A DNA stretch of 63,365 nt, counting the filler, from Intoshia linei (Eukaryota; Animalia; Orthonectida), in NCBI GenBank assembly GCA_001642005.1. It is 7 parts of 7 records of this genome, joined end to end, with 100 filler letters (N's around TTAATTAATTAA, not from the genome) between each part and the next. Parts side by side here need not be neighbours in the genome. Positions count along the whole stretch, not along the records: positions 1 to 21,393 come from LWCA01000645.1; 6 more parts are not named here. One strand, given 5' to 3'. The notes below the pieces were generated by a model, which saw only the letters and a program-made list of their open reading frames with translations, searched no databases and had not been told where the DNA came from. Shown one piece after another: positions 184 to 35,986 of the stretch (the stretch's first letter is position 1; the number at the start of each line of letters is the position of its first letter). A program made the position numbers and the translations under genes.

Positions 184-1564
184 CGAGTTAGATGAAAACA
201 AATCTAATGGACCTGAAGAAAATGACACCACAAAAGAGTTAGAATCTACAATCAAATCCATGACAATTTTAAACCAAGATAAAGATGTAAATACTGAATC
301 TATTAAATCAAAAATTATTGATATACCAAGTGAAAAGTTGGAAACGGCAGATATTGATATCATAAAAGATGAGACGAATAAAATGTTGGATGTAACTGAT
401 TCAACTTTTGACATCAAAATTGAAAAAGAAAAGATTATGAAAACATGCCAGTGTTAGATGAGTTTTTATTTACATCTGAGTTTGATATAATTGATGATTC
501 TGTAAATTCAAATACGTCACATGAAACAGAAAAGGAATTTGTAAATTCTAAAATTGAGGATTCGTGCAATGTCAATACTCTTATAATGAATACACTTAGT
601 AAAATTGAAGCAATTGAAGCCATATAATTATCAACGTGCGTGAAAATTTGCAAAGACTATAATATTAATAAAATAATAAATCCCATAACAAAAGATACCA
701 ATCGGATCGTTAATGATACAGTTGATATTTTCCAAAATTTAAATACAGAATGTACAGCTAGTCCTGAAAAAAAAAACTTATAATTGTCATTGTTCGTCAG
801 CAGCTTCTGATGATAAATCATATCTTATCACGAGAAAGAATACATTATCTAATAATCCTATTTGAACTTGTTCCGTAAATTCAGAAAGTTTAATATCGAA
901 AAACAACAAAGCACGAATGAGCTTGTCGATTATCGTACTTGCTCCAGTGCAATGAATGATAAATCTTATTTTTATAACGATTAAAATTCTAATAAATTTG
1001 TCATATGTGAAAAACCAGTCCAATCTGAATTTTATAGGTATTCAAATTTATTGATTTATTTTTGAGTAGTTTTAATTTTTGATTTATAGTTGTGATTAAA
1101 ATATAACATTTAATTTAATATTTAGAACCCTACAAAAGTCTCATAATCAGCATGAATTTAATGAGTCTCGACATCCTATGTATTTAAATTTTGACGGAAA
1201 TGCACCGGTATATTCAAATCAATTAGCAAATGTCTACCTTGCTCGTCCTACAAACCCACAAGTTGAAATTAACAATAACAATGGAAATGCATATACTAAT
1301 TTATCTAGGATCATTAATGTACATAAAGCTCAACCAAATCAAGTATATACTAAAAATTCTCAATGTTACTACCAAGATAATTATTCTACACCTCAAATTC
1401 ATCAAAATAACCAATTCAACAGGTATAAAAATCCCGAAAATAGTAAATATGTTTATTCTTCCCAAAATATATCTCAAAAATTTAACCAAAATTATATCAC
1501 ATTTCCAAATGACAATGAATCTATACCTGACTTTAATTCTATATTTAACCCATCGAAAAAATGA
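184..1564 (+). pseudogene. Decayed inverted paralog of the orphan acidic/N-Q-Y-rich gene at 13392-21211
   Basis: 1-1060 aligns to the reverse complement of 21393-20250, and 1126-1570 to that of 13935-13390. The upstream acceptor AG reads AA (~181). There is a frameshift near 430, a stop at 625-627 and further disruptions. GT-AG intron at 1038-1125; the last exon is still open (1178-1564). Confidence 0.8.
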
Positions 1565-1732
1565 ATGACTAATTGTCAACACTTGTCTATAATTGTATTT
1601 TATTAAATTTATTGAAGTTGTAGCAAATTGCATATATCTAGGATAGTTAATCCTATGAAAATCGATGATAATTTAAATATATTCCAATAATTGCATATAT
1701 GATGACTGTACGTTTCATTTTGTGCAAAAGTA

Positions 1733-3480
1733 ATGTCTATTGAAATTGTATTAAACAATGATTGTTATTCTGGGTTTTTGTGGGATACAAAATTTCATGA
1801 TAATATGGTGGAATTGTCAGTTTCTCTCGTTTCCATAAATAACAGACAATCAAATAGTCTGGATATAGAAAGTTGCAATACTGAAGACGTGAGATTAGTT
1901 ACTTTAGATAAGAAGGATTCAACCCAAAACGATATTGGTATATCCATCAAAGGAGGAATCGAAATAGGGTTTCCAATTATAGTTTCTCAAATTTTTCCTG
2001 ATAGTTTGGCCAGTAAATGTAAACATTTGCACGTTGGAGATGTAATTATGAGCGTCAACGGTTTGTCACTGAAAGATAAAACTCATAGTGAAGCTGTCAA
2101 AATCTTAAAATCTTTTAAAGTATTATTAATGGAGGGTAAATTAATTTTTTTGAAATTTAAACTTTTGAATTTAGTCAAAAGCATAAATTATTACATGAAA
2201 AAAAATTCACTGAAAAAAATTTACACTCATAAAATGTTGATTTATATAAATTTTTGCTTTTTGGATCAGTCTAATGGCAATTATGAATACGAAATTTACA
2301 CACCCCTAATTTTTCTCAAAGACAAGCTCAGTGATCGAGACATTTGTTTTAGAAATTGTAACGCTAGACTCAAATTTCAATCTTCTAAAATGGCAATTTT
2401 CTTTATTAAATCGGTGTATGATATAATTTTACAATTTATGAGTAAAAACTTGCAGCATTTATTTCAAATTGGTAAAATATATATTTTCATTTCATTAATA
2501 AAAGTATAATAAAAATAATAATTATTATTCAGGATAAAAAATATTTAGACGAAAACACGCAATATAATTGGAAATGCGGTTTCATTAAATGCACAAATTA
2601 TAACTATAATGTGGTACATTTAATGACCATTTTTATTCAATTTTAGAATTGCAAACTTTTTCTTTTTCTAATTTTAACATCCGAAAAAATTTTCATATAC
2701 GACTGTATAACAGGTGTGTCAGATTTAAACGATCAAGTTCCTTTGCACGTTATTCACTTGATGGAGTGCAGGTAATCATTTTGTAAAAAATTAATATTGA
2801 CAAAGCTGTCGATTCATCAGAATGGCGTGATCTGTTGATATATAATCAATAAAACAAACATTGATTATTATAATAATTATTGAGCAGTTTTAATTATTTC
2901 AGTCAAAATAAATTAAATTTACTCGATTAAGTGTTTTTAGGATAGTCACCTCGTCTAATTCAAATTTACAAAGTTTTAAATTGCGCTGGTTTAATGAATC
3001 CTGTCAAAACAATCTAATTGGAAATATTCAATTCATTTTCATTTTTTTGGAAGAAAAAAATTGTTGGAAACAGTCTATAGAAGAAAATCAAATGATTATG
3101 TGCAAATTAACTACCTTTGTTAATTTTGGTATTTATTTACTAATAATTAATTTGGTAATTTTTATTTTTAACTAAATTATAGAATGCAATCATGATAAAA
3201 ATCCAGCAATGATTCAAGTTGGTAAAGATACACTAGTCATTTTGTGTAACAATAATTCGACCCATGTTTATAAAGTTATCAAGGAGTATTTATTAGATGA
3301 ATGCCGCTCAATAAAATGTCAAGATGATTATTTAAAAATTACTACCAAATCAAATGAAATAACAGTAATGTTTACAATTTTTTTAAACTTAAATAATAAA
3401 TTTAGACTCTCAAATTAAAAAATATGAAAATTATTTTTACATTACTTTTGTATTTGAAATATAAATTTTATTTTTTGTAA
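1733..3480 (+). CDS. Syntrophin-like protein (PDZ plus PH-like C-terminus), multi-exon
   Basis: PDZ GISIKGGIEIGFPIIVSQIFPDSLA..LHVGDVIMSVNG..KTHSEAVKILK closely resembles the syntrophin PDZ. Short GT-AG introns downstream; probable stop at 3478-3480. Exon boundaries approximate. Confidence 0.7.
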
Positions 3481-3509: not shown

Positions 3510-6500
3510 TCATTTTTTATTAAATTTATTTATGGAGGTAGAGGACAGAGATGTTGAACTTTCAAATAATCCCGCCAATTCTTTTACTGAAATGGTATCT
3601 AAAATAAAGTACATTTTTATTTTTTAAATTAAAAAAATTTTCCAGGCAATTTTTATTGGAAAACATTTCGAAAGAATATAATTCAATATTTATTCGACCT
3701 GTTGGCTTAGTGCAGTGTTCCCTGGTTCAAATAGTGTACGGACCCCACCCCCCATTTCAAAATATTCATTTTTTTGACCCCCAAAGGAACCATGAAATAT
3801 AAAAAATTAATGAAAAAATGAAGGTTTTTTCAAAACAAGGTTTAGTCAAATCGCGTTTTTCAAAAAAAAATGGAAAAATTGCATTTTTTATTTTGGGTTT
3901 TAGATTAAGAAGTTGTTGGTATTAAGATTTGATAAAATCGGATTTTTGAATAAAAATATTCGAAAACAGTGATATTTCCTTGAAGCGTTGGTAAAATTGC
4001 ATTTTTATTATGGGGTTGGAATAAAAGGGTTTTTCCCAAAAAAATCAGTAAAAGTCGATTTTACTCACAGGGTATTAAAGTGTATTTATTATTAAATTTT
4101 ATTAATGGTGGGATAAAAATGGGATTTTTCAAGTAATAACATATCGGTCGTCTAGGCTTTGAGGTAAATTCTCAACATCTGGCAACTCTGTAATAAATAC
4201 TAAAAATTCTCTTATAAAAATAAACAAAAATTAATAAAATTTTTTTATATATTTTATTTAAATATCATGGACATCTACAGTTTTATAGTTTTGGACCACA
4301 AAGCAACCCAAAGACCACAATAGGAAACTACTGTCTTAGTCGTTGTGATTCCCCAGGAAATTAAAAAAACTAAGAATTTAACCAATTTTAACTTTAAGAA
4401 AAACTGGACAATAGAATAGTTCAGGGGTCGTCACCTTTTTGATGCATAGTTACTTTTTATGATTTTAATCGTTTCCTAGGCACCAAATTTATTCTTTACT
4501 TAAATAAATTGAATGTCTATGTGTGTTATTGTCACAGCTGGCTGAAATAATGGTACCAGTATAATTTTGCTGGCGCTATTCAGTACAGCTGGTGCCACCG
4601 CTAGTTTTGTTTATTTAAAAAATTAACCGTCCTAGAACATAAAAACCCAATTTCTAATATAGTTTTTCGAGAGTCATGTTTTATCGCAAGTTTCCTTTCT
4701 TAAAAATTGAAGCCTTAAGGGAAAAACATAATTTAACTTTTTTTAAATGAAATGAGCCCTATAATTTAAAAAAACAGTAATTCTGGGAAAGTTTTTAAAT
4801 AATTTTTTGGTTGTAAGGGGATATTTATATTAAAAATTTGGGATATATTAATATAAACAGTGACAGTAATAAATATATTATTTTTTAATTAACATATAAT
4901 ATAATTTTCAATTTATTAATTATTAAATATTGACTTCAGAATCCGAAGTTCGGACATAATAAGTTAAAAAAAAAATGGTTATATAATGAATAAAATTTTA
5001 AATATATATACAACGTAGTGGAAAAATTTTTTAGGGGCGTTAAGAAAATATATTTCTAAAAAGGGGCAGTAGACAAAATGAGTTTTGGAAACCCTGGTGT
5101 AAGCCCTACCAAAACAAAAACAAAAATGGTAAAACAAAAAAAAATTTTAAACGTAAAAATAGTGCATCCGCAGTGCGGATTCCGCACAGCATTCAATAAT
5201 TCACAAATATTCAATTTAATGATTTACTTACATAAAAATACTAATGTACAATGTGTTATGTATTTATTTTTTTTTCATTTTTAAAAAAAAAAAGTTATTC
5301 CAAATCAAATTATAATTATAAAATAAATAAACGCATATAATACCTGAATTGGTTTTCATTTTTCGAGATTTTTTGGAATTTTGAAAGCCATCGCTCTTTA
5401 TTTTTCTTGTAACTAAATTTACACTGTTGACTAATCTTAATGATTTGATTTACACTTAATTCACTCTCTCCCTAACTTTCAGAATAAATAAAAATTTTAA
5501 AATCGGGTAAATAGCCAAAACAGGCTACGAGTGAATTAGGTTAGTCAAAGTGAAACGGTGGTAATTTTACTTACTAACGCTTTAATTGAACAACACTTTA
5601 ATTTGAAATTTGACGGGTTTCATATTTTAATATTTTTTAATATCTACATCTTATTTTTAGCGCATGATCTGTTATATTCTGGGATATGAATCATATCATC
5701 AAAATTGAAAGTAAACTGAGTCCTCAAAACTGAAAAACTTTTTAAACTTTAAAAAAAAATTTCAAAGACATTAACCAAACTCGAATCGACACAATCTGGT
5801 AATTTATTGAAAATAAAATACAATATATACATTAAAAAAATTACGTTTATCAATTTTACGTTTAATAATACAGGATTTAGTTAATCTAATAATTTAATTT
5901 AGTTTAAATGATATATGTATGTGACAAAATAAATAATTTACTTTTTTGTTTCAAAAACATTGGAATTATCTGAAAATGAATCTAAAATGTACAATTACAA
6001 CCGATCATTAATTTTTAAATTACACTAAAAAAATTTGAAAAAAATACCAAATCGTAGAGAATTATTAATTTTCGACAATACCGTTTCGCTACTAGATCTA
6101 TGAATAGATGGCTTGAAAAACAAAATTCCATCCAAATCTAATAAGTTTAATAAAATTAAATAATAAACCTTAACATTACAATGAATCTTACCTATAAATG
6201 TATCAGATGGAGAAAGAATATTTTCACATCCATCAACATTTTTGTAACCGTAATGTTTAGATTTATAATTACACGACGGCTCAGAGAAAGTGTGATTCTT
6301 TGACGTTGATATTTTCAATTTTAAATGTTTTTTATTTCGTTTATCTCCACTAGAATTAAATTTGTAAATTCTATGATAAGACGCAGTTAGCATGCCTTCA
6401 TAAATTTGTAATTGCTTATTAAATCCTTTATTAGGTTGAATTATACTTCTTTTATTTTTAACAAATTCTGTTGCTTCATTCATTGATATAGATTTATATT

Positions 6501-9500
6501 TCATGAGATAGGCTATAACCTAAAATTTTTAGTAGTCAAATAGGAATGGAAGTAGTGTAAAAGTCCATTTTATAAAACAGAAATTTATAATACCGTAGTT
6601 TTATATTAAATATTATTACTATACAATTAAATGTAATTTGAACTTATCAAAATTAAAATGATAGTAGCGACGGAAATAATTAATATTAACTGTTTCAAAA
6701 TTATTCAATAAGGCGCAATTCAAAGTATTACTTAAATTAAACTAAAATTTTACTAATTTCGAAATTTAATAAAGTGAAATGTATTAATAAAAAAATATTG
6801 ATTTAAAAGGTAAATTTTACAATAGAATTTTGTATATTAAAATTTAAGTAAATGTATAGGTAAGATAAATTAAATACCGTTGAAGCAGATCTGCTTATTC
6901 CCATTTTGCAATGAACTAAAACAGCACCATTATTTTTTCTAAATTAATAGTATCAAGATAAAATATAATTAATGGATTAAAAAAATAATACATTAATTTA
7001 GTGCTTTAATAGTATTTATAACATGTATAAAAACAAACCTTACATCTTCGATAAAACAAAATGTATGGTGCCATTTATCAAGGAGTGTAGAAGTTGGAAT
7101 GTCGAGCACTCTGATATTTTTATAGTTAAATTCAAATGGATAAAAATTATCAATTTCCACTGTCATATTCAGTATATGTGTGATACTAATCATATACATT
7201 ATTAATTATTGATTAAACAAAAATACTTTAATTCTTTCAATTCATGATAATTACAAGCGTTCATTTCAGTTCCAAGATATAGGTAGGGTAAAATTTGTGT
7301 AGGTGCATCTAATTGAGCCATAAGTATTATAGTTTCTTGTCTAATAAATTTTCTATAAATTTCAACGTCCTTTCCAATTTCTACCTCCAATTGTTCATCC
7401 AACTAAAGTTTTTATAGGTTAAAATTTAAACCTGTAAATTATGAACATCTTAAATGTTGGTTAAACTCTGTCATATTCGAGCCCAATTTTAGACACTAGA
7501 TTTTTAATTTACAATGTTTGTAGACAAATTAAAGCCGTCGATCAACATTTAATCACATGAGGCTAGAAATATTTTATTATATTAAAATACATATAAAAAT
7601 TTCAAATGCACCCGAGGGTTCACGTAATTCGATTTTAGAACCTTATTAGTGAAAAATGGATAAATTTTTTTCTGATCGATCCATCGCAGCTCTCTGCCGA
7701 GGCGGACTTTTTAATTTTAACACCGATTTTTCAATTTATTAAAGACAATAAGTGTATGATCTTAAAAACAATCAAAGTATAGTTACAAATAGTGATGCGA
7801 CGATTCCAAGGAATCAGAATCGACAATTGCTGTAATCGTTCTTTTTTTAGGAATCAGCATCGGTAAAATTTTAACTAATTCTCCAAAACGAAATAGAACC
7901 TTTGGTACAAATGGTGAAAAGCTAATATTTTAACATTATAATTTAAAATTATTTGTTCTGACATTAATTTAATATTAATTAATTAATTTTAAGCATTTTT
8001 ATTATGTTTCTTAGTTGTTTATTTTGTAGTTCTATAAATTCGATTATTATTGGTTATTTATCTAATCAAAAAAAATAAAACTCTCACAAATAGTATGATT
8101 CAAAAGTATTTGGAATCGCATTGGAATCGGAAGCGTTTTTTTTGAAGAATCGAAACGGAATCGGCATCGTTGAAAATTTGATAATCGTCTTATCACTACA
8201 AACCTAATAGTAACCGGTAGTTACAAACCTAATAAATCGTCATAAAAAACGTAGTTTTTTCCATCATGCATTTCGGAGGAAGGAGTAGAGCCGTGGAGAG
8301 CCAGCAGTAGGTCAGTATAGTAATGGTAGGGCTCTCTAGATTTTTTTAAAATTGAGACGTCTATACATTGTTTAATCGATCGTCTATTCAATAGACTATT
8401 GTATAGAAATTGAAAATAACAATTATAAACCGCATTGGTCATAATAATTTTGACATACTTAAGAAAGGTTCCAACATTATCTATTAATAAATTAAAATAT
8501 TAAGCCCCTAATGATTGTAGACCCGGTCCATATTGCCTTTAGCCCCCCTCAATGCCTCTGGGAAGGATTGGTTCCCAAAATTGTTTCTCCATGGACTGAT
8601 TGTCAAAAAGTGCACTTTTTTGGGATTGCTATTTATAATAATGCTCTTGATTTTAAAAACAATGACAATTTATGTTTTATAAAAATTTAGGACTTTTTTA
8701 ATTAAAAAAAAAAGGGTTGATTTGCGGCTTTGAATATGAAAATGTAAGTTTCTGAGGCTGAGATTTTCGCCAATAATAACGAATTTCAAATGATTGTCAA
8801 AATATATGCTTTTTTAAATTGTAGAGGTGATTTTTTTATAAAAAAATAAAATTTGCAATGCTACATCACGCTTGAAAAATTGTATTAGCAAGTTGATTTT
8901 TTAACACACTCGCATTACATTTTATATAAGTAATGGATGTAATGTATATATTTTTTTTTGGTCCACAGGTTTTTTCCAATACCATCGTAGGGTCCACAGC
9001 GAAAAAAGGTTCAGAATGTCTGGTCTAATATCTATGTAATCATAATACCCTGGGCCGTGAAGATCTAAGAGTGGACCCGGACCAGATGAACATTCTAGGT
9101 AACTGAATATACGTTTAAAAAAAATTTTTGTTCCTTCATCCATTGTTTTATCCAGTGGTTGCCCAACTTTTATTCGGCGTTACAGTGCCACGTGATAAAT
9201 AAAAAAATTTACCACACCTTAAAAAAAATTCCTAACACCATCTATTGATTTAGAATAGTATGGGAGATCATATGGTCTCTAGCCCATCTCCACGGCCCTG
9301 ATCAATCCTCTAAATTTATATTATGGAGCTTTTCGAAGTTTTCGAAAAATGAACTCCTTTTCCAATCTTATTGGAAAACCGGTTTTCAAATTTTCTAATA
9401 ATCAGGACTTTCAATTATGAGACTGTAATAAATATCTAAAGATGCCACGCAAATTATAAAATCAACCATAACATTAAATTCACGGTTATCATGTACAAAA

Positions 9501-12023
9501 AAATAAATAAAGTCAGACTCGTTAATAATGAACCCTAAATGTCACATTTTTGACAGATTCACTATTAAACATTTCTGTGATTACCCTTTACCTCTAAAAA
9601 ACATTTTAAGAAATGTCTGAATAATAAAGTTAATTTTATTTTAATAAATTGGTATAATTATTATACTATTATAATAATAGTAACCATAAAAATCGTTACA
9701 CTAACAATTTATATTTTGTTTTTCTCAATTTTTAAAAATTTTGAAGACTCTTAAAATGTTAAAAATATTCTCTTAAAAACCCTACAAAATTTTGGACCTA
9801 AGATTATCTTTAAAATGTTAAAAAATTGGTTGAAAGAAATATCGGTCTAAAAATCAATAATATTAAAAATTAAAAAGCATTTTTTGTAAATTCATTATAA
9901 TGAATTTGAACAATTTGAATAAAATAACGAACTTGCATAATCTTTAGTGGCGTACACAATTTTACACAAAATCATTCACTATTAAAAAAATTCATTATTG
10001 AGGGTATGCAATACACATTATTGATGAGTCTAACTGTATAAAAAAAATTTTTTTTAAATATAAATCATTTAAATTTTCATAAAATTTACTTCCATAAAAC
10101 TTATAGTGTCTAAATTGGAAACACGTAAAATTGATAAAATGAATTGGCTAAGTTTTCGTTTGTCTTCATTTTCGACTCTAAATTTTGAATACAGATATAT
10201 TTAAATTATAAATTTAATTACGAAAACAAACGCTCTTCGTGGGTACACTTGTGAGATTCAATACCCGGCATTTCGTTCCTAAAATTTAAATTAATTGTTC
10301 CATCATTGTTAATTAAACTAAATCTGAATATGTAAAGTTAATTACATGTATTATAATTATAAAATGTTTTATTTTTTATCTGATACATTTTTCCAATTTT
10401 ATGGAGTCTAACGCCTATTGTTCTCTGCAATAGTTTGTCAGCGCAAAAAAATTCCGACTACGACCAATACAATGTACAATTGTATTGAAAACTTGTATAT
10501 TTTAACTTGATACAAATGTTAATTTTTAAGTGACTTTTTCATATATTTCAAGTAATTTTTCCCAAATTTTAAAATGAGTTATTAAAAAAATCTAAAAATT
10601 GCTTTTAAACTGCGTGTGGAAATGAAAAAAGTTCTCTTGTAGTTGAATACACCATGCAACAATAATTACCATCTATTAATGCTATTCTTATCCGATGTGA
10701 TATTGGAATTATAGTAATTGAGAAAATCCGAGTTGTTTTGACTATCAATCATTAATTTCCAATTTGCTGATAACTGAGCCCTTAGTTTGTTAATTCTTGT
10801 CAAAAATGCCCTAATTATAACATAATAATTATATATTAGAGTTTCCAAAACTTTTAGCATCCATGACCCATCTAAGAATATGAATTTTTTATGGTTCCCA
10901 TAAAATTTGTTTAACAAATTTGCTATCATCCGTGTTGGGAAGCCCTGTTAAAAGTATTAAAACTTTTTAAACTTTAAACCCTTAAATTTTAAATTAAAAG
11001 TGTAATGGGGAAATGTATCAATTATGATGATTTACCACATGGCTTTAATAGTTATTGGTTTAATCAAAATATCGCGGTTATTTGTAGACATAATCAAGCA
11101 ACTAAACAGACAATTAAGATTTTTTTATAACATGATAATTCAGGCCTCATAAATAATATTTTGTAATTTGCAAAATATTATTTAACGTTAAATTTTAATT
11201 TGAAATGGTTCCATTGTCATCGTTGTATTTTACACTACACAATGAAATTTTTTGATCGCATTATTCCATTTTATAAAACTTGAAAATTGTACAATGACGT
11301 GAATGCGTTTATGAAATTAAAACATACCCTGACCCATCAACATTGACATGGACTGTCATGTTCATTGGAAATACAAGACCGATAGTTGCGACATCACAGT
11401 TTTCTTGAGACACAACGTCAAACCCCAGTAAACATGTTTGGTGTAAATCATTATTAGTGACAATCGCAACATATCGTTTATTAGTTTGTTCAGGTGGGAC
11501 GTCAAGTTCGACTAGAAAATGTATACCATCCGTATCTTTGAGCGTATCAATCATTAAATTTAAATGGTGAGTAAATTGAGTATCTAAATTAAACCATGAA
11601 TAAAAAATAAGTTAAATTCTTACCTTTCGGCAATTGTTTAGATTCAATAGTTTGGGAAACTCTTGGCAGTAATTGAGCCACACCTTTAGATACATGATAT
11701 GATGTACAACTAAATTTATAATTTGATAAAATTTTATTTAAACCTTTTCAATTTACTGATAAACCTGGAACACAGTAAAATATGGTTCAGCATATCAATC
11801 TACAAGTAAGTTTATCACTGTCAATATTTATCAACAAATAAATAAATTTTATTATTTACTAATATTTATAAGATACTATAACCTATCTCTCCGTGAGGCG
11901 TAAACAAATTTATTGTTTTGTATATTACTTTTAAATTTCTTAAGGATTTCCAATGATTAATCGAAAAATGGGTTGTAGATAAACCTAATTAATATGCCCG
12001 TATGATATAATACTGCGTTCCAT
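3510..12023 (-). CDS. SSH: Protein phosphatase Slingshot homolog (cofilin dual-specificity phosphatase), multi-exon
   Basis: N-terminal SSH motifs CLLGFD..TIGLVFP..VDGSG (11330-11440), KPITIKAMW and YYNSNITSDKNSINRW. Also QLDAPTQILPYLYLGTEMNACN (7230-7330), catalytic VHCKMGISRSAST (~6880-6920) and IQPNKGFNKQLQIYEGML. The 5' and 3' ends are uncertain. Confidence 0.9.
3713..4333 (+). mobile_element. Non-autonomous hAT-type MITE (family also at 37706-38260, ~51755-52419 and part at ~42915-42985)
   Basis: Termini CAGTGTTCCC...GGAAACTACTG, degenerate 8-bp TSD (gcttagtg/tcttagtc), shared internal sequence with the other copies. Confidence 0.65.
7790..8198. mobile_element. MITE with TAGTGAT termini and internal GGAATCG repeats, in an SSH intron
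   Basis: Imperfect TIRs tagtgatgcgacgatt / aatcgtcttatcacta; subterminal gaatcg repeats. No clear TSD. Confidence 0.5.
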
Positions 12024-12614
12024 AATTCAATTTAAAAGGTTCAACATGACAATATTAAATCATTCGTTTTGTTTTGTTTACCGTTTTTCTATTTTTATAA
12101 TCATTATTCCATCATTTCATTTTTTGAACTATATACTCATCTTGATATTTACAATATAAACCTGTTAGGCTCGCATAACAACTATTGTTCAAATGTCATT
12201 GTGTCAGTGTTACCACGTTTTTTATGAATAAATCCTTTATTATTATAACTTGTGAATCAGTTTGTTTTATTGTATTTTTACATATTTTCACTTAACAATC
12301 AAGTTTTTATTTTGTGAAATAATTCTTGATATTTCAGCTATAAAATTTCCGTGCTTTTGATGTACCGCTAATATTATGGGGTTATATATCGAGTCACATG
12401 AAAATTTTAGTAAACGATATTAAAAAATAACATTTCTTTTAGTGAAACCAGTTATGTAGTATAGTATTATATTTCTTAAATTACGCTAATTTATGAAATT
12501 ATTAATTAAACTTACATTGATTAGTGATTAAATCTGGTACCTTTTTGCCTAAATCACTGATTCTTAACTTTTTAAGGTTTTTTTAGAAATTTTAAAAATG
12601 TTTTAGGGTTTTAA

Positions 12615-12746
12615 CCCTTTCACTGTCTGGAATTTATGATTTAATTTAAACTTGTATAATTTTTAAATTATCAATGTGAAAATAAAAGAATAAAGTTTTT
12701 CAAAATTATGCTGTGTATAGTATAGAATACACAGACAGTGAAAGGG
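12615..12746. mobile_element. piggyBac-like mini-MITE
   Basis: Perfect 15-bp TIR CCCTTTCACTGTCTG / CAGACAGTGAAAGGG, with TTAA immediately on the left. Confidence 0.6.
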
Positions 12747-12769
12747 TAGGGGAATTTTTTTTACCCAAT

Positions 12770-13045
12770 TTATAAAGATAATTTTGGTACCAAAATTTTT
12801 TAGGAATTATTATTTTTTTAACCCAATTTTTAAAGATTTTTAAGATCCCATAAAATTTAAAAATATTCCCTTCAAAATACTACAAAATTTTGGTACCAAA
12901 TTGTCTTCAAAATTTTTAAAAATTGTATAAACAAATAATCTTTCCTTCAACCCGACCAAATTTAGTTCCCAAAAATTATCTTCAAAATTATTAAAAATGG
13001 TATAAAAAATATTCACCTTCAAAAAACTACAAAATTTTGGTCATT
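12770..13045. repeat. Imperfect minisatellite built on AAAATTTTGGTACCAAA..TCTTCAAAA units
   Basis: Several degenerate units, including the palindrome AATTTTGGTACCAAAATT; related units at ~9740-9830 and ~44070-44130. Confidence 0.5.
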
Positions 13046-13391
13046 ATCATTAAAGAAACCACAAAAATATTGTCAAAAAATAAATATTATGATTACTTAG
13101 CAAAATCGATGATTATGTGGCTCTAAGATGTATCCTTCAAGTAAATGTTCTCTGTCTTAGTGTATAATCAAAACTTGGTCAAACTTGACCAACGACATTA
13201 GTTTGACAGGAACGAAACATTTTTATAAATAAAAATATTGATAGTCCATGACAATCGTAAAATTTCCCAAATAGGAATTCCCGATTATTATCCCGATCGG
13301 AAAATTAAGATTTTTACAGAAATTTGTTACAAATTACAATTGATTTTTAATAAAATATAATTATAGACAAGAGTTGGTAATTATTATAAAT

Positions 13392-16300
13392 TTATTTATC
13401 CGGTGGATAAAATGGAGATTTGAAATCTGGAGATTTTCTATTATCTTTTGGAAATCTGAAATGACAATTTTGAAAGTTAGTAGAGATATTTTGGGAAGAA
13501 TAGCCATATTGATAATTACTTGAATTTTGATATCTGTTGAATTGGGTATTTTGATGAATGTGAGGTGCATAATAATTCTCTGAGTTGTAATGTTGAGAAG
13601 GTTGATTGTAAAATTGATTTGGATAATCTTTATTTACGTTAGCGGACCTAGATAAACTGGTATATGCATTTCGATTGTAATTCTGAAATTCAGTTTGTGG
13701 GTTTGATTGCTGAGCCAGGTAGGCATTTTGTAATTGATTCAATTTAAGCAAGTAATTTTGTTGTGAAATAAAATTCATTTGGTCTTGTTTGATTTTTTTA
13801 GCGTACATTATAGACATGTACTCTTGATTTTGCATGTTTTGATTTGGATATACCGGTGCATTTCCTTCAAAATTTGAATGCATAGGGTACCGGTACTGAT
13901 TAAATCCATTTAGATTGTGTGAATTTTGTTGTATTCTAAATATTAAATTTAATATTGTACATCCTTTACTTATATAAAAATTAACATTTGTGTTACTGTG
14001 TCTCAGAATTTAAAAAAATAAAAAAAAAAGTGAAAACAATTTCTAAGTCAGTTTTTCGAGAGCGTTGTTTTATCGCTAAATTTGATTTTCAGAATAGACT
14101 CCTTCAAATTAAAAAACCCAAATTACCTTTTTTTAAATGCGTTCTAGAATTTTAAAAAACATATTCTAGACAATTTTTAACACCATTAACAGAATCGTAA
14201 ATAAAAAAATTCGAATGACAGACACACAATCTATTAGGTTATGTCGCTTTTATTTTCACTGTTTTTTAATCACTATATGATCAAAAAAATTTAAAATAAT
14301 TTGAAATTAACAGTGCTTTTGGATAAAATATTTAATGATGCATCAGATAAAAGTGTAAATTATTAATATACACAAATATTTATTATGAATTTAGACAAAA
14401 AACTTCTGTGATTTTGAAGAACATATTCGCCATATTCTACTATATGAGTATAATAATTCTCATTCTGCTGTTAAAACAACTCAAAAGATATGTAGTGTGT
14501 ATGGCCAAGATGTCATACAACAAAGAAAAACATAAAAGTTCACCAAGTTCATTAAAAAAAATTATAGCTTAAGGGATGTCCAACGTTCCGGTAGACCTCT
14601 CGTGGGTGATATTGACTCAATAAAAGAAGCATTGAACATCTCTCCTATTAAAACATGTAGATCGCTTACTAATGTTGCTATTTGTTCAAAATCAAGTGTG
14701 TTTAATATGTTATTAAGGATGAAAAAGGTCCATAGGTCTGGTATATGGGTTCCTCACTTATTGTCAAATCAGCAAAGATTAAATAGAGTTAATATATGTT
14801 CCTCTTTATTATTTCGACTGAAGAGTGAATCATTTCGATGTAGTTCTATGTAATTCTATCTATTTCGACATAGATTTTTGTAGTATCCAAGATACAATCG
14901 TTGTTATAGATATAGTTTAGTTATCGTCATTGTTAAAATAAATAATTAATTGAAAGTTAAATGTCGAACATTACATTGGTGTCAGAAGTCTTTTTCGGAC
15001 AGCCTCAACCATTGTTGTTACCAACAGGCAATTTATCTATGGATGTGGATACTTGGCTGGAGGCGTTTGACAATTTCATCAAAATCCATTGGGATGATGT
15101 CAAGTAAGATGAGAAAAATGGCCTTATGTAGACATTACGTTGGAAAAGAAGGTGCAATACAATTAAAAACTAAAAAAAATTTGCAGACATGGTTACGGAA
15201 ATTAAGACTTGGAAAATTTACAAAATATTATTAAAAAGACAAGAGTTTCTGGAGGCTCAGAGATTCTTTTTAATAGTACTAGCGACATACTTAGTGTTTC
15301 CGAAACCTGAACTTGGAAAAAAGAGACTAGTGGTGAAATCTGAGATGCAGTTGTACATGGAGATGGCATACCTTTCGGAGGTATTTAAATGTTGCACACA
15401 ATCAACAGCCTCTCCAATATTTATGAACATCAAAGATTGAAAATGTACTCATGATCAATTTAGAAGAAAAGACAAAAAAAGATGGTTTAGTATTTTTTAT
15501 GCTTGACCAGTCTGCGTTTGATAAAAATCAAAGTGGACGTATGGTGTTGTCATTATTAGGAAATCTTAAGTCGTTTCTACCAAAGGTATTCGGAGGCTCA
15601 TATGATTTTCAGAAATATAATTGAATCTATAAAAAATGGGACAATAGATTACGAAAATGTTAATTTAGGTGCATATCGTGGAGGGGTTGCGTCCGGTTGG
15701 AGATGGACCGCCATGATTGAAACTTTACTAAATATGATTGTTGCTCGTTTAGCATTAAGAAAAGTTGAATTATTACATCTTAAGATAACTGACAATTATA
15801 TGGGCGATGATGCTCTTATAGTCCTCCAAGAACAACCGACAGTGACTTCGAAGCTTGTCAGGATCCTACACTTTTACAAAAGTTATGGATTAAAAACCCA
15901 TCCTACAAAGCAACAGGTATCAACTGTGCGTATAGAATATTTTGGGGATCTTCATTTTTCGGAAACAATGCAAGGATATGTTAGTAGAAAGGTCGATTCA
16001 GTAATTCAAAGATATTATGTAGGGATGAGTTCGTGGCTAGATCCGCGAAGTATAAATGCGCGAATAATTATGTGGATGTTTATAGTTGCTTCTTCAAAAA
16101 TAGTAGGATTAAATAGAGATAGAGTTTAGAGGATAGAGAGGAATATTAAAAGCTTTACCTGGAAAAAAATTGCTAGAACTCGCTGGAAATATAATGGTGT
16201 GCAGGCTATTTTTAAACTTAAAAATGAAAATTGCATTTTCTCAAGTTGTGAAAATCATAATTTGAATTTATTGAATTTAATTTCACCTAAAAAAGTTTTC

Positions 16301-19300
16301 GAAAAGATTTTATCATTAAATTTAGAAAACATATTTCCAAATATTGTTATATCGTTGCGCATTTTTGACATTATTGGTATTTGTAGCTTGTCGTTGTACA
16401 AAGAGATTGGTCGTCAGGAGGGCATCTAATAGCACGTCCAGTGTTCGTAAATTAACGTCCGATTTGAATCTTGGCATTTATCCAAGCTCAGTTTACAATA
16501 TTATTTCGTCTAGTCGATTCATCGAAGTTCAAAAATGAAATGCAAACCGCCCCTGACACCTGACCACAAAAAATCCAGCTTAGAATTCGCCAGAGAGAAC
16601 ATGAGCATGAATTGGAAACAAGTTTGCTTCTCGGATGAGAAAAGATGGGCCAGATGGTTATACGCATTATTAACATGACGTAAGACAAGAATTACTTTCT
16701 AAGAGGTCCAGACAAGCCAGTGGAGGAAATGTCATGGTATGGAGAGCATTCTATTCATCAGGTAAAACTAAGATTTGCTTCTTAAGCGGTAATGTGGATT
16801 CTTTAGCTTATCAGAATACTCTGATTACATACCTATTGCCTCATAGAAGAAAATTCAAAAATTTTCAACCAGACAATGCATTTGTACACACGTCAAGGTC
16901 AATCAAAGAGTATTTTAGCCATAAAAGATTTAAACTCTTGAACTGGCCATCAAAGTCTCCCGATCTGAACTCGATCGGAAATGTTTGGGGAATACTGACA
17001 CATAGTATATACGAAGGCAATATAACATATGATAGTATTCAGGACCTGAAAGATGCAATTAAAATAGCCTGGCAGTAGCTGCCACGTTCTGTCATCTTGA
17101 GTTTGTACGATTCAATGAAGAATAGGATATTTGAGGTTATTTTGAATAAAGGCAGTTCTACAAAGTATTAGTAATATTATTTTCTTCTAATATATTAAAT
17201 ATTAAAATTAATTTTATACATTTTTGACTATATTATTTAAACATGCCATCTATTATGCATTACTTATTAAACAGTTGATTTTTTGTTTTTACAGACTCTA
17301 CGTAATTTTTAATAGATATACTTTGTATATTCTGTTCTTCTTAGACTCATTTTGTGCACCTTTCTTTACTGCTCCTAGCCTATGGTTTTATTTTTCGAAA
17401 AACTTAGAACAATATATTTTTATAACACTTATTCTAAATATGAATTACATAATAAACAGAGTGTATTAATGTTTAGAATTTGCTGTCCTATTTTACTAAA
17501 TTGTTGTACATTAAAATATTATAGGGCCTACTGCTGGCTCTCCACGGCCCTAACCATTAAATGAACAATTGATCATGTGACTTGAGGCCTTCTGTTACAT
17601 GCACATCTACATCAATAAACTTGGCAATTCCTTTTTTCGGTTCTATTTTAGCTGAATTCAGCTTACGATTTTTCAGTGGTCAACAGATTTTTTTGAAAGG
17701 ATTTTCCCTACCTCCCACTTGTATTGAAAATATTTCAAAACGAATCATTTGAAGATTTGAAAGAATTCACATAAAAATATGAATTATTTTTACTATGCAT
17801 ATCATAAGATGAAGATATCAAAGCAGAATATACTACATGGACAAAAAAAAAACTTGATTTAAATAATCCAAAGCTGCAATTCTAATTAGTTTCCAAATAT
17901 TCATCAACTTTTAATTATTTTGGCAACATTGCCAATCACCACATGTGCATGTAAACGCTCCGTTAGCATTTTGAGAAGATTGAAAACCTTTTTAAGATCA
18001 ACAATGACTGCTAATCGTCTATGAGAAAAAATTTTTAATATGAACTGTAAATATAATTTTGTGTAAATAAACATAAATTTTTATTAATTTTCTATCACGT
18101 GACTTATAAAATTCAGAAAAGTAACCATTCAATATGAATTTGAAGAGAAAAAGACAAGATTTGTCGATAAATGATAAAATAAAATTGATTAAACTGTTTG
18201 AGGAAGATTCAAATCGGTCTCAAAAATATTTAGCCACCAAACACTCCATTTCAGTAGGTTTGGTAAGTAAGTTGTAAAAAATCACGAAGAAATCCTTAAT
18301 TGTAATAATTTAAATTTTAATCAGAAGAGATAACCTTGCCTAAGGAAATCTGTGAAAATTGAATCAGCGTTGTATCAGTAGTTTTAACGTCAACGGACAT
18401 TAAATATAAGTATAAGTGGCAATATATTGAAAGAAAAGGCGCTAGAAATTGAACGATTTTAAAGCATCTACTGGTTGGTTAAATTCTTTTTTAACCAGAA
18501 ATTCCATTAAATCAAAAAAAATTGTAAGAGAATCTAAATTAGTAAGCGAGTCTAAAATATAAGAATGGAAATAATTATTTTCTGAAGCTGTAGAAAAATA
18601 TAGGAATGATGAAACCGGATTATTTTTTAAATAAACTGCTTCCAGAACTTACATCTGCTCTACAAAAGTAATAGTAATCTGTTCGCAAAAAATATGAGAA
18701 TTTATCAAAGTTTATATTATTTTGATTTCTTGACAAATTTTCACAAGCCCCACTCAAATTTTATGTATGAAACTAATGTCGACTAAATATCCGGATATAA
18801 TACCGATACTAAATGTATATGGGAACATATGTTGAATCTATTCGTAGGCGATATATTGGAAAAGATCGATATCGTAAATATTACTTTTTAAAAACTTGAA
18901 AGTTACATTGAGAGTGGAACTTTGCCACGGTATGTCATAACTAGATGGAATTCAATTTATGATGTAATAAAGAAAGCAATACAAATGAAAATAGGTTCAG
19001 AATCACTTTCGTTAAATTTACAAAAAGTTAATATAATTTTAAAAAACATCAATAAATATTGATATAATTCAAAAAGATGACTCAAATATAATTCATTTGA
19101 TTAAATTATATAAAACTATTAGACTCTTGGTTAAAAGATTTACCTGGAGTGGTAGATACTGATACAATTGATAAACTAAAATAAATTTGGAATTATAGAT
19201 AGAATATAGTCACTACAAGTAATTTAGGAAAAATTTTATCTCATTTATCATTTTTCTTCCCAATTTATCAGGATATGTTCACATCCAATAAAAGTACTGA

Positions 19301-21211
19301 ATATTGTTTCAAGGGTTGGGCCCATAAAATATTACCTGAAAGTAAAATTACAATGTTCGAGGAAGAGTTTAATGAAATTAACAGTAAGCAAAGCAGCTGT
19401 AGAAAGATGCTTTTCACAACACAGAAATATTCACTCAAATGTTAGAAACAGCCTATTTGAATCAACACTGGATGATTCTTTATATATAAGATATAATTTG
19501 AAGAATATATTATAAATTATAATGTTAATATTTAATTTATTTTTGTCTGCCAAAAAATAAATAAATAATATTTTTGTTTTGTTACGAAGTGATGACACAT
19601 TTTGAAAAATAGAATTAATTTACAAAATTAATAAAAAATTACTTATACTAATGTTTGAAGGTAAACCCAATGGGTATTATTCCTAAATTTTCATTTGATT
19701 AACGACACATTATTTACTAACAAAAAGTTTAAGTATGCTGGAAAAACAGCCTTGCTGTACCGGTACAGCTGTTGCTGTTACCAGCCAACCTCGCTAATAC
19801 CAGCAATTTTACACAGCCCTGTTTATTTCTTATGTATAATGTCTTAATTAATATCGTTATTTATGAATAAAAATTTGTTTCAAATCAACTTTACTTTTTT
19901 TGAAATTAACCTTTAAATAATTATTCTACAATATAGCCCCAAAAATTGAAAGTGAAATAATAGAATTGATCAAACCTTCTACAATTACAATTTTGAAATG
20001 TATTTTTTATGATTAACTATATAATGCAATTATTGTATTCTTAAGTAGTCATTTCAAGAGGTCCCACTGTACCATAGATATTTACAATTTATTTTAAGAT
20101 TATGATTTATGAATATTTTCAGGGTGTAACAATTATTGTATTATTTTTAAGATTATAAAATCATTGTCTATAATCAATTAAAAAGTCGAGTTAGCATTTA
20201 GCTCCTATTTGTGTGAAGTACACAACAGTCAAGTAGTCACAAATATACATCAAAAATATATCAATAAATTTAAATACCTATACAAATCAAATTGGTTCAC
20301 TGGTTTTTCACATTTGATGAATTTATTAGAATTTGGTTCATTATAAAAATAAGATTTATCATTCATTGCACTGGAACAAGTACCATAATCAATATTCCCA
20401 TTAGTAGTTTGTTGTTTTGGCGGTATTACTCTTTCTGAAATTACAGAATCCGTTCGAATAGTAGTATTCGGCATTATATGATTTCTAGCATGAGGATATG
20501 ATTTATAATCAGTAGCTGCTGAAGAAAAATGACAATTTGAAATATTTTTTTCTGGACAAGTTGCACATTCTGTTGATAAATTCTGAAAAATATCAACAGC
20601 CGCATTAACAATCCGATTAGTATCTTCTGTTATCGGATATGTTACTCTATTATTTTCACTGTATTTTTCGCAAATATTTTCACACTTTGATGCTTCAATT
20701 TGTTCAAATTCAGAAAGTTCATTAATTGTAGAATTATTGATATTTGATTCATTCATGTTTGAAAATGTTTCTTTGTCCAAACATTCAATATCCTTTACGC
20801 TCTCAATTTTACCAGGTATAAGATCGAAGGAATCGTCAATTTTAGAATTTGCAAATGCTTTTTCTGTATTATGCGCCTTATTTGAATTTACAGAATCATC
20901 AATTATATCAAACTCAGATGTAAATGAAGACTCATCTAACACTGGCATGTTTTCATTATCTTCTCTTTTTTCAATTTTGAGGTCAAAAGTTGAATCAGTT
21001 ACATCCAACATTTTATTCGTCTCATCTTTTATGATATCAATATCTGCCGTTTCCAACTTTTCACTTGGTATATCAATAATTTTTGATTTAATAGATTCAG
21101 TATTTACATCTTTATCTTGGTTTAAAATTTTCATGGATTCGATTGTAGATTCCAACTCTTTTGTGGTGTTATTTTCTTCAGGTCCATTAGATTTGTTTTC
21201 ATCCAACTCAT
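13392..21211 (-). CDS. Orphan low-complexity protein: acidic exon 21211-20278 plus N/Q/Y-rich exon 13935-13392; 5' end unresolved near the gap
   Basis: Open frames 20250-21206 and 13392-13883. Splicing from GT at 20277 to AG at 13936 joins them in frame (..LYR|IQQNSHNLNGFNQYRYPMHSNF..), at the same position as the 88-nt intron in the paralog. Confidence 0.75.
14234..14838 (+). mobile_element. mariner transposon 5' fragment (degenerate)
   Basis: TA followed by a TTAGGT..TATGTCG TIR remnant. Encodes HIRHILLYEY, SVYG, RSGRP and SGIWVPHLLS (WVPHEL motif). Truncated before the catalytic D; same family as 58132-59043. Confidence 0.85.
14850..16195 (+). pseudogene. Endogenous viral element: RNA-dependent RNA polymerase of a totivirus-like dsRNA virus (Giardiavirus/Artivirus-like), frameshifted
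   Basis: RdRp motifs in order over three frames: F KPELGKKRLVV (~15303), A LDQSAFD (D at 15505), B GVASGWRWTAMIETLLN (S at 15692), C MGDD (GDD 15803-15811), D GLKTHPTKQ, E RIEYF. No introns and higher GC than flanks. Outer boundaries approximate. Confidence 0.88.
16200..16378 (+). mobile_element. hAT transposase C-terminal (dimerisation domain) fragment
   Basis: SPKKVFEKILSLNLENIFPNIVISLRIF/LTL pattern typical of the hAT dimerisation domain; no TIRs. Confidence 0.6.
16380..17507 (+). mobile_element. Tc1-family transposon, 5'-truncated and degenerate
   Basis: WKQVCFSDEKR, GGNVMVWRAF, FQPDNAFVH and WPSKSPDLNSIGNVW motifs. Stop at ~17171; possible right-end sequence to ~17507. Confidence 0.9.
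17600..18020 (+). mobile_element. Second hAT transposase C-terminal fragment
   Basis: 17890-18020 translates FPNIHQLLIILATLPITTCACKRSVSILRRLKTFLRSTMTANRL (hAT dimerisation consensus). Confidence 0.8.
18133..18665 (+). mobile_element. pogo/Tigger (CENP-B-like) transposase 5' fragment
   Basis: MNLKRKRQDLSINDKIKLIK (HTH), ISGNILKEKA, FKASTGWLNSF, NDETGLFF; contains stops and frameshifts. Confidence 0.85.
18700..19821 (+). mobile_element. Third hAT element, 3' half with right terminus
   Basis: CIWEHMLNL (CxxH-like), TRWNSIYDV, AAVERCFSQHRNIHSNVRNSL; ends in ...CACAGCCCTG (hAT-type CAGGG terminus). Confidence 0.8.
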
Positions 21212-21493
21212 CTAAATATAAATTTAAAAATATTTATTATTCAGGGTCTACTTAATTACATCTAAATAAAAGAATATAAAAGGATTAAAAAAATAAAAAT
21301 AACTCAATCATACAATAATACATCAGAATTATTGATTTTATTCTAATATACAAAGTAAAACATCTCATATTATCAAAGAAAATGTAATATAAANNNNNNN
21401 NNNNNNNNNNNNNNNNNNNNNNNNNNNNNNNNNNNNNTTAATTAATTAANNNNNNNNNNNNNNNNNNNNNNNNNNNNNNNNNNNNNNNNNNNN

Positions 21494-22070
21494 ATAATAT
21501 TTAAATTATATTAGATATATGTACTAATATTGAATATTTTCAGGTATTTTTCTCGGATGAGTCAATGCCTACTACAATGGATAATCGATATAAAAAAGTC
21601 CGTAGAAGATTATCAGATGCTTTTAGACCAGAGTTCATGGCACGAACGGTGAAATTTCCAACCAAAATTATGGTTTGGGGAGCAATTAGTGTATCTAAGC
21701 CGGCCCTATATTTGTTATAGAAGGTATAATGAACCAACATAAATATATTGACACATTAAAAAACTTTTTAAATGATCGTCCAGGTTTATTCAATACAAAT
21801 ATGCATGTTTTGCAACAGGATTTGGCTCCCTGTCATACTGCATAGTCTGTTTAATCTTTTTTTGATTCCAACCAATGAAAAGTATTACCCTGGCCCAGTA
21901 ATTCTGCAGATATAAATTCCATTAAATATTTTTGAAAGGTATTGAAGGATGAAGTACATCAAGTTCATATTTTGTATAAACAAAAATTAATTGACCGGAC
22001 AATATGGGTTTGGAATAATTCGGACAAAATTCAATTATTATGCAAAAACTTAATAATTGTATATCAGCAG
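21494..22070 (+). mobile_element. Degenerate Tc1-family transposase fragment
   Basis: FFSDES, TVKFPTKIMVWGAIS, LQQDLAPCHTA and LPWPSNSADINS motifs, with stops. Confidence 0.8.
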
Positions 22071-33897: not shown

Positions 33898-35767
33898 TAG
33901 GGTGTCACATCGTTTTTAAATTTTGATATTTTTAAAGACGTACCATGTAGACTAGATGTATTTTTAAATGCAAACCAAGATGTAAAAGACCATTTTTAAA
34001 AAAAGTAAGTAACAACGTTGCGGTGATCAATTAAGTAATTAGATAAAATAATTGTAAATTTAAGTTTATTTTTTTAAATTTCTAATAAAATCATCAAAAT
34101 CTATTCAAAACTGACACTATATTTTGGATTTCTACTTCGTTTTTGAAAAATCTGAGGCTCTTTTGTATTTTTGTAGAGCTCTTTCGGCTGCATCATTCAC
34201 AATTGGAGCAATATCAATATTTATTAAATTTTTGTTTATATAATAATTGTGATTATTATACTTAGTTTTAGCTACTCGAACTATACCTTTGAGATGAATT
34301 GATTCAGTAGCTATTATTTCCCAAAATTGAAACATTTCTTTGTTATTTTTAGAAGCAACCTTGGGATCCCCACAATTTAACCAATATATTATGTGACCAT
34401 AATATATAAATACTATAAATGACTTTATATTTTCCGATTTGTATATACCAAGAATGTATGATTTTAAACAATAAATAATTAAAATAAAATTAATGTTTTA
34501 TCTTAACGGCCATTTTTAAATCTATGAAATTTAATCTTTATCAAGAGATTTATAATCAAAATTGATATAGAAATGATATTTTTGTTGACTCAACAATGAA
34601 CAATTCAATTTTAAGTTCAGTGAAGTGGACAATTTTCCTTTGATATTGTTCTATTTCATTACTGAATATTAATTTTTAATCTTTGTTAATTAAAATTAAT
34701 CTTGCTAAATAAAATTTAATATTTTAAATTCCTAATTATTTATACATTTTTGTGTATTGTTTCATTCCGTTATTTAATTTACAATTTTATTAACACAAAA
34801 TAATAAACCAAAACATGTCTAATAGAAAAGTAGACATATTTTGTGGTCCTTTTATTGATTTCAAATTTAATACATCAAAATTTCCAACATATAAAGAAAT
34901 TCTAAAAAGAATAGTGAACTTAGAGAGAAATAAGCAAATATATGTGTTTAATAATATTTCCAAAGAAATACTGGCTATATACAAAAAGTCTGATTTGAAT
35001 ATTATTACAGAATTAGCAATTTACAGAAAATTGAATAAATTTAATGACGAATATAGAATTGTAAAAATATAATTTATTTAATAACATTATTTGTTATTTA
35101 TATAATATTTAGGTGTCTAGAAGTTCCCAAACAATGCAAGCTAAATTATTCTCAAATAAATTAAATACTATTTTCGATTGTACTAAAATTAATCAATCTA
35201 ATAGTCTAATAGAGGATATTGAGTTTTTAGAAGCTTAAAGGAATGATATTGGTAACATGGCAGGTTCTTCAACTATTGAAAATCCTTATAGTTATTGTCA
35301 AAATAGAATAAAACTATCAACTTCTAAAAAGTTACAGAAAACTAAAAACCAAACTCAAAATTACTCAAAAAATTATTACATATATTCATTTAGTGATGAT
35401 TCAAAGAATTCGAATGAAAGTAATAATGATTTATCAGAAAAACTGAGACAGTGTGATAAACAAAATATCTCATTACGAGGTTCTGCTTCTTTAATGGGCG
35501 TATCGCATGAAACCATGCGCCGAAGACTGAATAATCAGAGAAATAACGATAAAAAATTGTTATATAAAAAAGTACAAAAAATGAATCATGTAGTTGTTTA
35601 TTATGATGGAAAAAAGTTTGATAAAGTGGAAAGAATGGCTGTTGTGATAATTTATGTAATTGACAAATATGAGGTGATATTGGGAGTCCCTCAACAAAAT
35701 GACTCTAGAAATATAACAACTAGTAATACCGTTATAAACTTAGTAAAAGAATGGAACATTCAAAGTA
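33898..35767. mobile_element. hATm-like DNA transposon remnants: 3' part on the minus strand (33898-~34400), 5' part on the plus strand (34815-35767)
   Basis: TAGGGTGTCACATC terminus (also at 26366). Minus strand gives IVNDAAERAL; plus strand gives VVYYDGKK..ERMAVV..EVILGVP..VINLVKEWNI. Family name recalled from motifs, not verified. Confidence 0.6.
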
Positions 35768-35986
35768 NNNNNNNNNNNNNNNNNNNNNNNNNNNNNNNNN
35801 NNNNNNNNNNNTTAATTAATTAANNNNNNNNNNNNNNNNNNNNNNNNNNNNNNNNNNNNNNNNNNNNTTTTTATTATATAATTTTAAATTTTTCGTAGTA
35901 TATTGTATCCTCTTTGGAAAATTATATTTTTTCTATAGAAATTTGACTAATTTAATTTTAATATCCCAAAAATGGTTACATTAAAC

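Follow-up and report, generated by a model that had tools for sequence, protein, structure and literature searches.

A fossil toti-like viral polymerase fragment in the orthonectid Intoshia linei, probably captured by a Gypsy-like LTR retrotransposon

Several described systems resemble the locus reported here, and the comparisons follow the available parts of the papers concerned. In Aedes aegypti, endogenous viral elements (EVEs) of flavi-, rhabdo- or chuvirus source were captured by Ty3/gypsy elements and lie beside LTR sequence of the same strand in transposon clusters (10.1101/127498); the pairing of LTR and EVE on one strand, recorded for 543 of 614 LTRs with respect to the nearest EVE, and copy choice are the route of capture put forward there. 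Toti-like EVEs are known in Trichinella (PMC13483474) and in sea lice (PMC10287012), and these Ghabrivirales EVEs of parasitic nematodes and sea lice are, like the present one, partial RdRps beside transposon-derived sequence in a parasite. Steamer and related C-clade (Mag-like) Gypsy elements have a short LTR of the form TGT...ACA, followed by a 12-base primer site complementary to tRNA-Leu (PMC8905726), and the same arrangement recurs in Intoshia. For Intoshia linei itself, one sentence of a 2019 paper (PMC6396948) mentions an RdRp gene belonging to a viral family and names viruses as its probable source; according to the available text, the screen applied PF02123 and PF00680 to predicted proteomes, and the gene was listed as horizontally acquired. 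Apart from that sentence, no virus or EVE study of orthonectids appeared in the literature searched, which consisted mostly of papers accessible without subscription, and no paper there carries the locus prefix A3Q56.

The Intoshia locus differs from the Aedes EVEs in its dsRNA, toti-like source and in its host, a spiralian parasite with a small genome, and in showing LTR, primer site and join together at a single locus. While the nematode and sea-lice EVEs have a close known living virus, none was found for Intoshia, the nearest RdRp being ~30% identical. Compared with the Steamer/C-clade Gypsy elements, the LTR is shorter (97 bases versus 153-219), a single base lies between LTR and primer site, and neither pol nor a 3' LTR is present (PMC8905726). 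Where the 2019 paper lists a horizontally acquired gene (PMC6396948), the present analysis finds a broken remnant that had been annotated with a false gene model. Both toti-like EVEs and capture by LTR elements had precedents, and the surprise is accordingly moderate; new are the reading of the locus as a fossil and not a gene, the likely retrotransposon join, a likely second capture, and a deep virus lineage in a phylum for which the literature searched describes no virus.

The window, i.e. the whole stretch of DNA analysed, comprises 63,365 nucleotides from Intoshia linei, filler included, of which positions 1-21393 are without an assembly gap. Four sequencing runs, all in the form of contigs, were compared with positions 14400-17170; runs X1, X2 and X4 stem from one sample, which may be the source of the window, and X3 from another study and year. 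No RNA run with the locus was listed, which has no bearing on its expression. The results of this comparison rest on the contigs listed. The features of the locus are:

14341..14836, + strand: mariner-type DNA transposon, 5' fragment, ending inside the transposase just before the TGDEK motif
14837..14878, no strand: spacer of 42 bases without a second copy in the window; identical X2 contig over 14617-14899
14879..14975, + strand: LTR-like repeat of 97 bases, TGTA...TACA, with AATAAA at 14937
14977..14989, + strand: primer-binding site complementary to the tRNA-Leu 3' end, exact 12-mer of Steamer/C-clade Gypsy
14990..15265, + strand: multi-copy repeat, gag-like, broken into pieces in two frames; in X1, diverged copies extend to ~15266
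15266..16129, + strand: fragment of a toti-like viral RdRp in three frames, with motifs F through E and the thumb start, and a stop at the end
16130..16373, + strand: right flank, perhaps with a viral tail as far as ~16210; a repeat begins at ~16260
16374..17170, + strand: decayed Tc1-type DNA transposon (Pfam HTH_Tnp_Tc3_2_like, E 7.3e-7; DDE_3, E 3e-10)

The six RdRp motifs F, A, B, C, D and E, which a sequence-only reading of this DNA had reported, are all located in that order on the + strand. Motif F (KPELGKKR) lies at 15303 in frame 1, counted from 14850, and motif A (DQSAFD) at 15505 in frame 2; frame 3 carries motifs B (SGWRWT, 15692), C (GDD, 15803), D (GLKTHPTK, 15887) and E (IEYF, 15932). 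The two frameshifts suspected near 15435 and 15600 could be mapped to ~15426-15447 and ~15590-15605. Of the stops that were said to break the element, one stands in frame at 16127-16129, after motif E, and none was found between motifs F and E on the viral path. The start of the element, originally set at 14850, had to be moved: its first 415 bases are non-viral, and the viral part begins near 15266, with a left edge at ~15258-15285 (profile envelope from 15258, alignment from 15285). The absence of introns is borne out by the genomic motif spacings of 59.3 (F-A), 62.3 (A-B) and 37 codons (B-C), all within the range of 113 homologues (F-A 56-103, A-B 60-76, B-C from 34; medians 60 for F-A and 66 for A-B), this set being those of 183 proteins in which the motif patterns found F, A, B and C.

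Pfam RdRP_4, the profile that had been proposed for a check, matches the longest open piece (15560-16126) with an E value of 1.4e-16 (60.9 bits, cut-off 22), and RdRP_1 does so with 5.7e-10; the stretch from B to E is open over 189 codons. Six-frame translation of the window gives 2193 pieces, of which a profile built from 135 homologue cores scored exactly 3 above threshold, all three from the viral element (E 1.4e-35, 1.8e-9 and 7.9e-8; next best 0.48). Together with the RdRP_4 score, this shows that the match to viral motifs is not due to chance. In tblastn searches with 171 proteins most matches fell at ~15270-16100; with the 151 proteins longer than 600 aa, all 223 matches lay within 15147-16210, and none pointed to further RdRp pieces in the window outside 15100-16300. 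Some 290 codons are present of a polymerase of 700-960 aa, the N-terminal half and most of the thumb being absent, and the GC content of the fragment is 0.35 against 0.26 for the window. Comparison with solved structures gave 24 weak and uninformative matches, the best at E 0.66 to picornavirus 3D polymerases, and a pattern search of a viral contig collection returned 2 matches, of which none was confirmed. A Ribosomal_S12 match on 15174-15437 (Pfam, E 0.005, under cut-off) was taken as chance, and an Rfam scan of 12000-21000 gave no match.

The locus thus shows matches to an RNA virus without a DNA stage, DNA joined to host sequence, and decay and truncation without introns. The RdRP_4 and RdRP_1 matches, and the fact that 119 of 121 representative homologues come from outside Intoshia, uphold the earlier view that a toti-like (Ghabrivirales) virus left a non-retroviral EVE in the genome of an animal; the named homologues are toti-like viruses or copies within insect genomes. 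That the fragment is an endogenous viral element, by whatever route it arrived, can be regarded as highly probable. It encodes no working polymerase.

To the left, the cluster opens with the mariner fragment, which is 68-72% identical in DNA and 51-53% in protein to a second copy at ~58250-59040 carrying Pfam HTH_48; other mariner copies in X1 and X3 run past 14836 with the rest of the transposase, into TGDEK. The front part of the second copy (58160-58630) is tandemly repeated around an N at 58408, which may be an assembly artefact. The 42-base spacer at 14837-14878 begins with TGTAGT, as does the LTR-like repeat after it. This repeat occurs only once in the window; two X1 contigs agree with the locus starting at 14879, with upstream letters that differ from it and from each other, as expected for LTR copies at other sites. 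One base further on stands the primer site, identical to the 12-mer at which tRNA-Leu primes Steamer and its C-clade Gypsy relatives (PMC8905726). The window contains it once, whereas the mean expected by chance, even when one mismatch is tolerated, is 0.04 (3 of 100 shuffles). A longer primer motif located 117 loci, and 60 of these also have CA at most 2 letters before the motif.

The repeat at 14990-15265 probably represents the front part of a Gypsy gag gene in a decayed state, its translation resembling, by eye, the gag starts behind the same primer site in metagenome loci. From an X1 contig of depth 19.5, with a variant at 15224, 42 letters before the contig end, we infer that the repeat ends at ~15266; the viral homology takes over at that point without a change of strand, an arrangement that suggests capture by template switching. 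Formal comparisons of the repeat remained negative with Pfam (no match), with a gag profile of 17 mixed ORFs, and with one of 33 pieces from 26 loci, where the read-through scored ~1 bit, below the best shuffles. In a pairwise gag test the best single score was equalled in 82 of 500 shuffles and the sum of the top five in 5 of 500, two of these five being duplicates. A homologue search with the repeat yielded only the protein annotated at this very locus (P0001) among 9 candidates, and the first Atlas matches were unnamed small proteins, followed by DUF4939 (0.89) and DUF7041 (0.86), weak leads below 0.9. Both DUFs are presumably linked to gag. At the locus no polypurine tract, 3' LTR, target-site duplication or pol was found, and a repeat search of 14100-18000 detected no LTR pair and no terminal inverted repeat pair around the transposon cluster. 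As 3' LTR, polypurine tract and target-site duplication are missing, an insertion made by integrase is unsupported. LTR ends of the type TG...CA followed by a tRNA-Leu primer site are present in 14879-15265, and the stretch looks like a 5' fragment resembling a C-clade Gypsy element, although its clade is not fixed and it is not assigned to a named family.

On the right, the tblastn matches to viral proteins stop at 16210. More contigs match from 16260, in addition to an X1 contig covering 15236-16316 that spans the right flank. The translation of the right-flank repeat was taken to resemble the end of a hAT transposase; this assignment of 16250-16390 was dropped after neither Pfam nor follow-up comparisons gave a hAT match. 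The genomic read support for the junctions, which had been named as a test of the element, is partial. The right viral end is bridged by the said X1 contig (8 other letters, 1 gap), which links the viral piece to the right-hand repeat, and the mariner break by an X2 contig identical over 14617-14899. At the join between gag-like repeat and viral piece, ~15266, none of the contigs listed meets a 31-letter bridge rule, the X1 contig starting ~30 letters to the left, and none of them covers all of 14400-17170. The stretch 15678-16143 is also found in X3, with three variants in common with the X1 contig, and so is the mariner family. X4 has no coverage of the viral part and X2 hardly any, which is no evidence of absence. 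The presence of the viral DNA in two studies fits germ-line inheritance.

In the database, the locus appears as part of a gene. The B-E piece is 99% identical to P0001, the 357 aa product of the annotated Intoshia linei gene A3Q56_04779, whose five exons map to 14961-15104, 15240-15380, 15436-15570, 15614-16123 and 16514-16654. Exon 1 starts within the LTR-like repeat, exons 2-4 bypass the frame changes, and exon 5 is Tc1 sequence. The modelled splices take out 18 and 14 residues of the conserved core, giving spacings of 41 (F-A) and 48 (A-B) against minima of 56 and 60 among the 113 homologues. Since the genomic spacing is virus-like and that of the model lies below all 113 homologues, the locus runs colinear with a viral gene, and its modelled introns are artefacts. 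The annotated gene A3Q56_04779 joins LTR, gag-like, viral and Tc1 sequence into a model that is false, and the analysis corrects a database gene that has been counted as an animal RdRp of viral origin. The gene of the 2019 paper (PMC6396948) is very likely this locus, because P0001 matches both PF02123 and PF00680 and the second Intoshia protein neither. Intoshia is absent from the searched supplementary files of PMC6396948 and PMC10101049, whose main data tables may name the protein.

This second protein (P0002, A3Q56_07427) is encoded on a contig of 7330 bases and has two blocks in common with the fossil, behind a DDE_3-like piece. The comparison rests on the gene-model protein and not on DNA: 14 of 67 ungapped aligned columns differ, with a mean BLOSUM62 score of 0.79 that was reached in 7 and 14 of 2000 neutral simulations (two transition settings). 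Four differences need at least two base changes, a value reached in 17 and 18 of 2000 simulations, and the count of positive-scoring changes is borderline (86 and 127 of 2000). Differences more conservative than neutral decay suggest that the copies diverged as working viral genes, and P0002 and the fossil are likely separate captures of related viruses.

Two explanations would do away with the fossil altogether, and both are very improbable. A domesticated, spliced viral RdRp gene expressed by the animal, as implied by the annotation and by the wording of PMC6396948, would agree with introns that have usable splice ends by annotation, with the retention of all catalytic motifs, and with the 189 open codons from B to E. 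Such a gene would, however, have a core shortened below that of all 113 homologues, begin in an LTR and end in Tc1 sequence, and do without the N-terminal half and most of the thumb, which are absent from the locus; moreover, at 7 variant sites in the other allele or copy, 2 changes are silent and 5 fall in 4 changed codons, so that no strong constraint is visible in these small numbers. As for contamination or an assembly chimera, in which viral or foreign sequence was joined to a host contig, it counts in favour that the parasite is sampled from within another animal, that X1, X2 and X4 are one sample, possibly the window's own source, and that the gag-like/viral join has no formal bridge among the contigs listed. 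Against this stand the facts that an RNA virus offers no DNA for assembly, that the frame changes and the stop are marks of decay in DNA, that one read contig connects the viral piece with the right-hand repeat, that both the variant and the mariner family recur in a second study, and that a second copy is present; the gapless stretch 1-21393 also holds PDZ-domain and slingshot phosphatase exons.

With a probability of roughly 0.7, we favour the view that the locus is an intron-free, broken fragment of a toti-like polymerase, copied into DNA by the reverse transcriptase (RT) of a Gypsy LTR retrotransposon that switched template onto viral RNA. The virus would have infected the germ line of Intoshia linei, where during minus-strand synthesis the Gypsy RT may have copied viral plus-strand RNA, moved to its own RNA near the gag start, and finished at primer site and LTR; the resulting virus-retrotransposon chimera would have been inserted in or beside a mariner relic and later decayed, with loss of the 3' LTR. 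What is observed is the primer site, the repeat reaching the viral piece on the same strand, the order of the parts, and the DNA in two studies. On the other hand, gag homology failed both profile tests and the best-single-hit test, and in a region that is a pile of transposon relics adjacency may be accidental. A true EVE could instead have arisen by another route, i.e. through a LINE RT or break repair with viral cDNA, the LTR piece being a chance neighbour or a later insertion. This is unlikely but deserves weight: neither a 3' LTR nor a target-site duplication is present, four other repeats crowd 14341-17170, and in the gene model of the second copy a DDE_3 (Tc1-like) piece and not a gag-like one precedes the viral part. 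It fits less well with a repeat that ends, in the same orientation, within ~20 bases of the start of viral homology, and with a succession of LTR, primer site and gag-like part such as a template switch would give; an independent LTR insertion would place its own 3' end beside the viral piece. If capture by template switching is correct, the capture join of LTR, primer site, gag-like start and virus can be seen at a single locus, for a dsRNA virus and outside the arthropods.

The source virus appears to be undescribed, as had been surmised, none in the collections searched being close and the best RdRp identity being ~30%. A search of the full collection returned 121 proteins, 2 from Intoshia and 119 others at 25-39% identity over the matched stretches; in the tree set (170 proteins, 135 past the motif filter, 116 after removal of near-copies), identity with the fossil peaked at 30% across 264 core columns; shorter local stretches in the search reached 39%. 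The ICTV genus rule of at least 31% RdRp identity, as quoted in the available text of PMC13483474, applies to whole proteins, and the fossil is decayed. RdRP_4 type, the motif order F-A-B-C-D-E and grouping with toti-like viruses place the source in Ghabrivirales, in trees that contain no outgroup from another order and neither IMNV nor Giardiavirus. The sequence-only reading had taken SGWRWT with K-E-GK-R as characteristic of the Giardiavirus/IMNV branch, which is at most a candidate placement: SGWRWT is no diagnostic mark, occurring in 94 of 172 proteins, across all clades, and among the proteins with names (30 looked up and a further 48 rows) none was a Giardiavirus or IMNV.

Five trees were computed, one of 116 rows, a quick and a careful one of 37 hand-picked rows, and two of 25 rows, one of them on the B-E piece alone. 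In all five, the fossil is sister to P0016 (Schistocephalus solidus toti-like virus 3), P0097 (Triaenono virus 1) and the unnamed P0028 and P0069, with support of 92; 85; 96/85; 97; and 95. The fossil branch is long (1.85-2.2), as is the stem of the sister clade, and the identity of this tapeworm-virus clade to the B-E piece is only 20-26%. The top search match has its relatives elsewhere, in Nilaparvata lugens toti-like virus 1 and Lebotiviridae. The AU test (p 0.3) does not reject a tree in which the fossil groups with Lebotiviridae-like insect viruses, even though the fossil stands outside the clade of Shuangao and Linepithema humile toti-like viruses (Lebotiviridae; support 100/99) in all trees. 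The named neighbours are tapeworm-associated toti-like viruses, Lebotiviridae and unclassified invertebrate viruses, and the trees favour, though not firmly, the tapeworm-virus clade as closest kin. Like Intoshia, the hosts of P0016 and P0097 would be spiralian parasites, a tapeworm in the case of P0016 (PMC7305300) and a host inferred from the virus name in that of P0097. According to the available text, tapeworm viruses of this sort are the subject of PMC7305300 and PMC9241645, the second of which suggests a new family to hold the ghabriviruses of cestodes. The fossil points indirectly to a virus in the phylum Orthonectida; its sequence can serve as bait for a living virus, and it adds a deep branch to ghabrivirus trees, with a hint of kinship to tapeworm viruses. 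Separately, P0007, P0161, P0167, P0169 and P0171 are toti-like RdRps annotated on long contigs in moth genomes (Scirpophaga incertulas, Arctia plantaginis), one of them with PF05485, and these are likely further EVEs annotated as genes.

A bolder interpretation seems improbable, in which orthonectids have, or once had, a ghabrivirus lineage new at family level and sister to the tapeworm viruses, a Gypsy element captured it repeatedly, and the copy, lying in a one-strand transposon cluster that gives rise to antisense piRNAs, acts as inherited antiviral memory in an animal that ranks among the most reduced. As to the memory, the only local pointer is the shared + strand of the transposon relics identified in the window, a weak one in view of their small number. 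These relics (two mariner, two Tc1-like, one possible hAT end and the LTR piece) lie, together with the viral piece, at 14341-17170, 19231-19515, 21708-21977 and 58160-59040, and host frames nearby (6025-11611, 13392-14009, 20250-21233) are on the - strand. A one-strand layout might fit a piRNA cluster, with too few relics for significance.

Finally, some coding features of the window may be recorded. The frames 13392-14009 (- strand) and 1100-1564 (+ strand) are single-exon paralogues, rich in N, Q and Y and 75-81% alike in DNA; 13395-14009 has no Pfam match, and the pair is possibly a lineage-specific gene family. A slingshot-type phosphatase has exons at 6025-6519 and 11309-11611 (- strand), with matches to DSPc (E 5.3e-10) and, short of the cut-off, to PH_SSH1-like (E 1.2e-5), and 1706-2509 (+ strand) is a PDZ-domain exon (E 1.5e-11), which we take to be syntrophin-like. 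At 35239-35823 (+ strand) an open frame of ~190 codons, without a Pfam match above cut-off, is cut by a gap; it presumably resembles the start of a DNA transposase.
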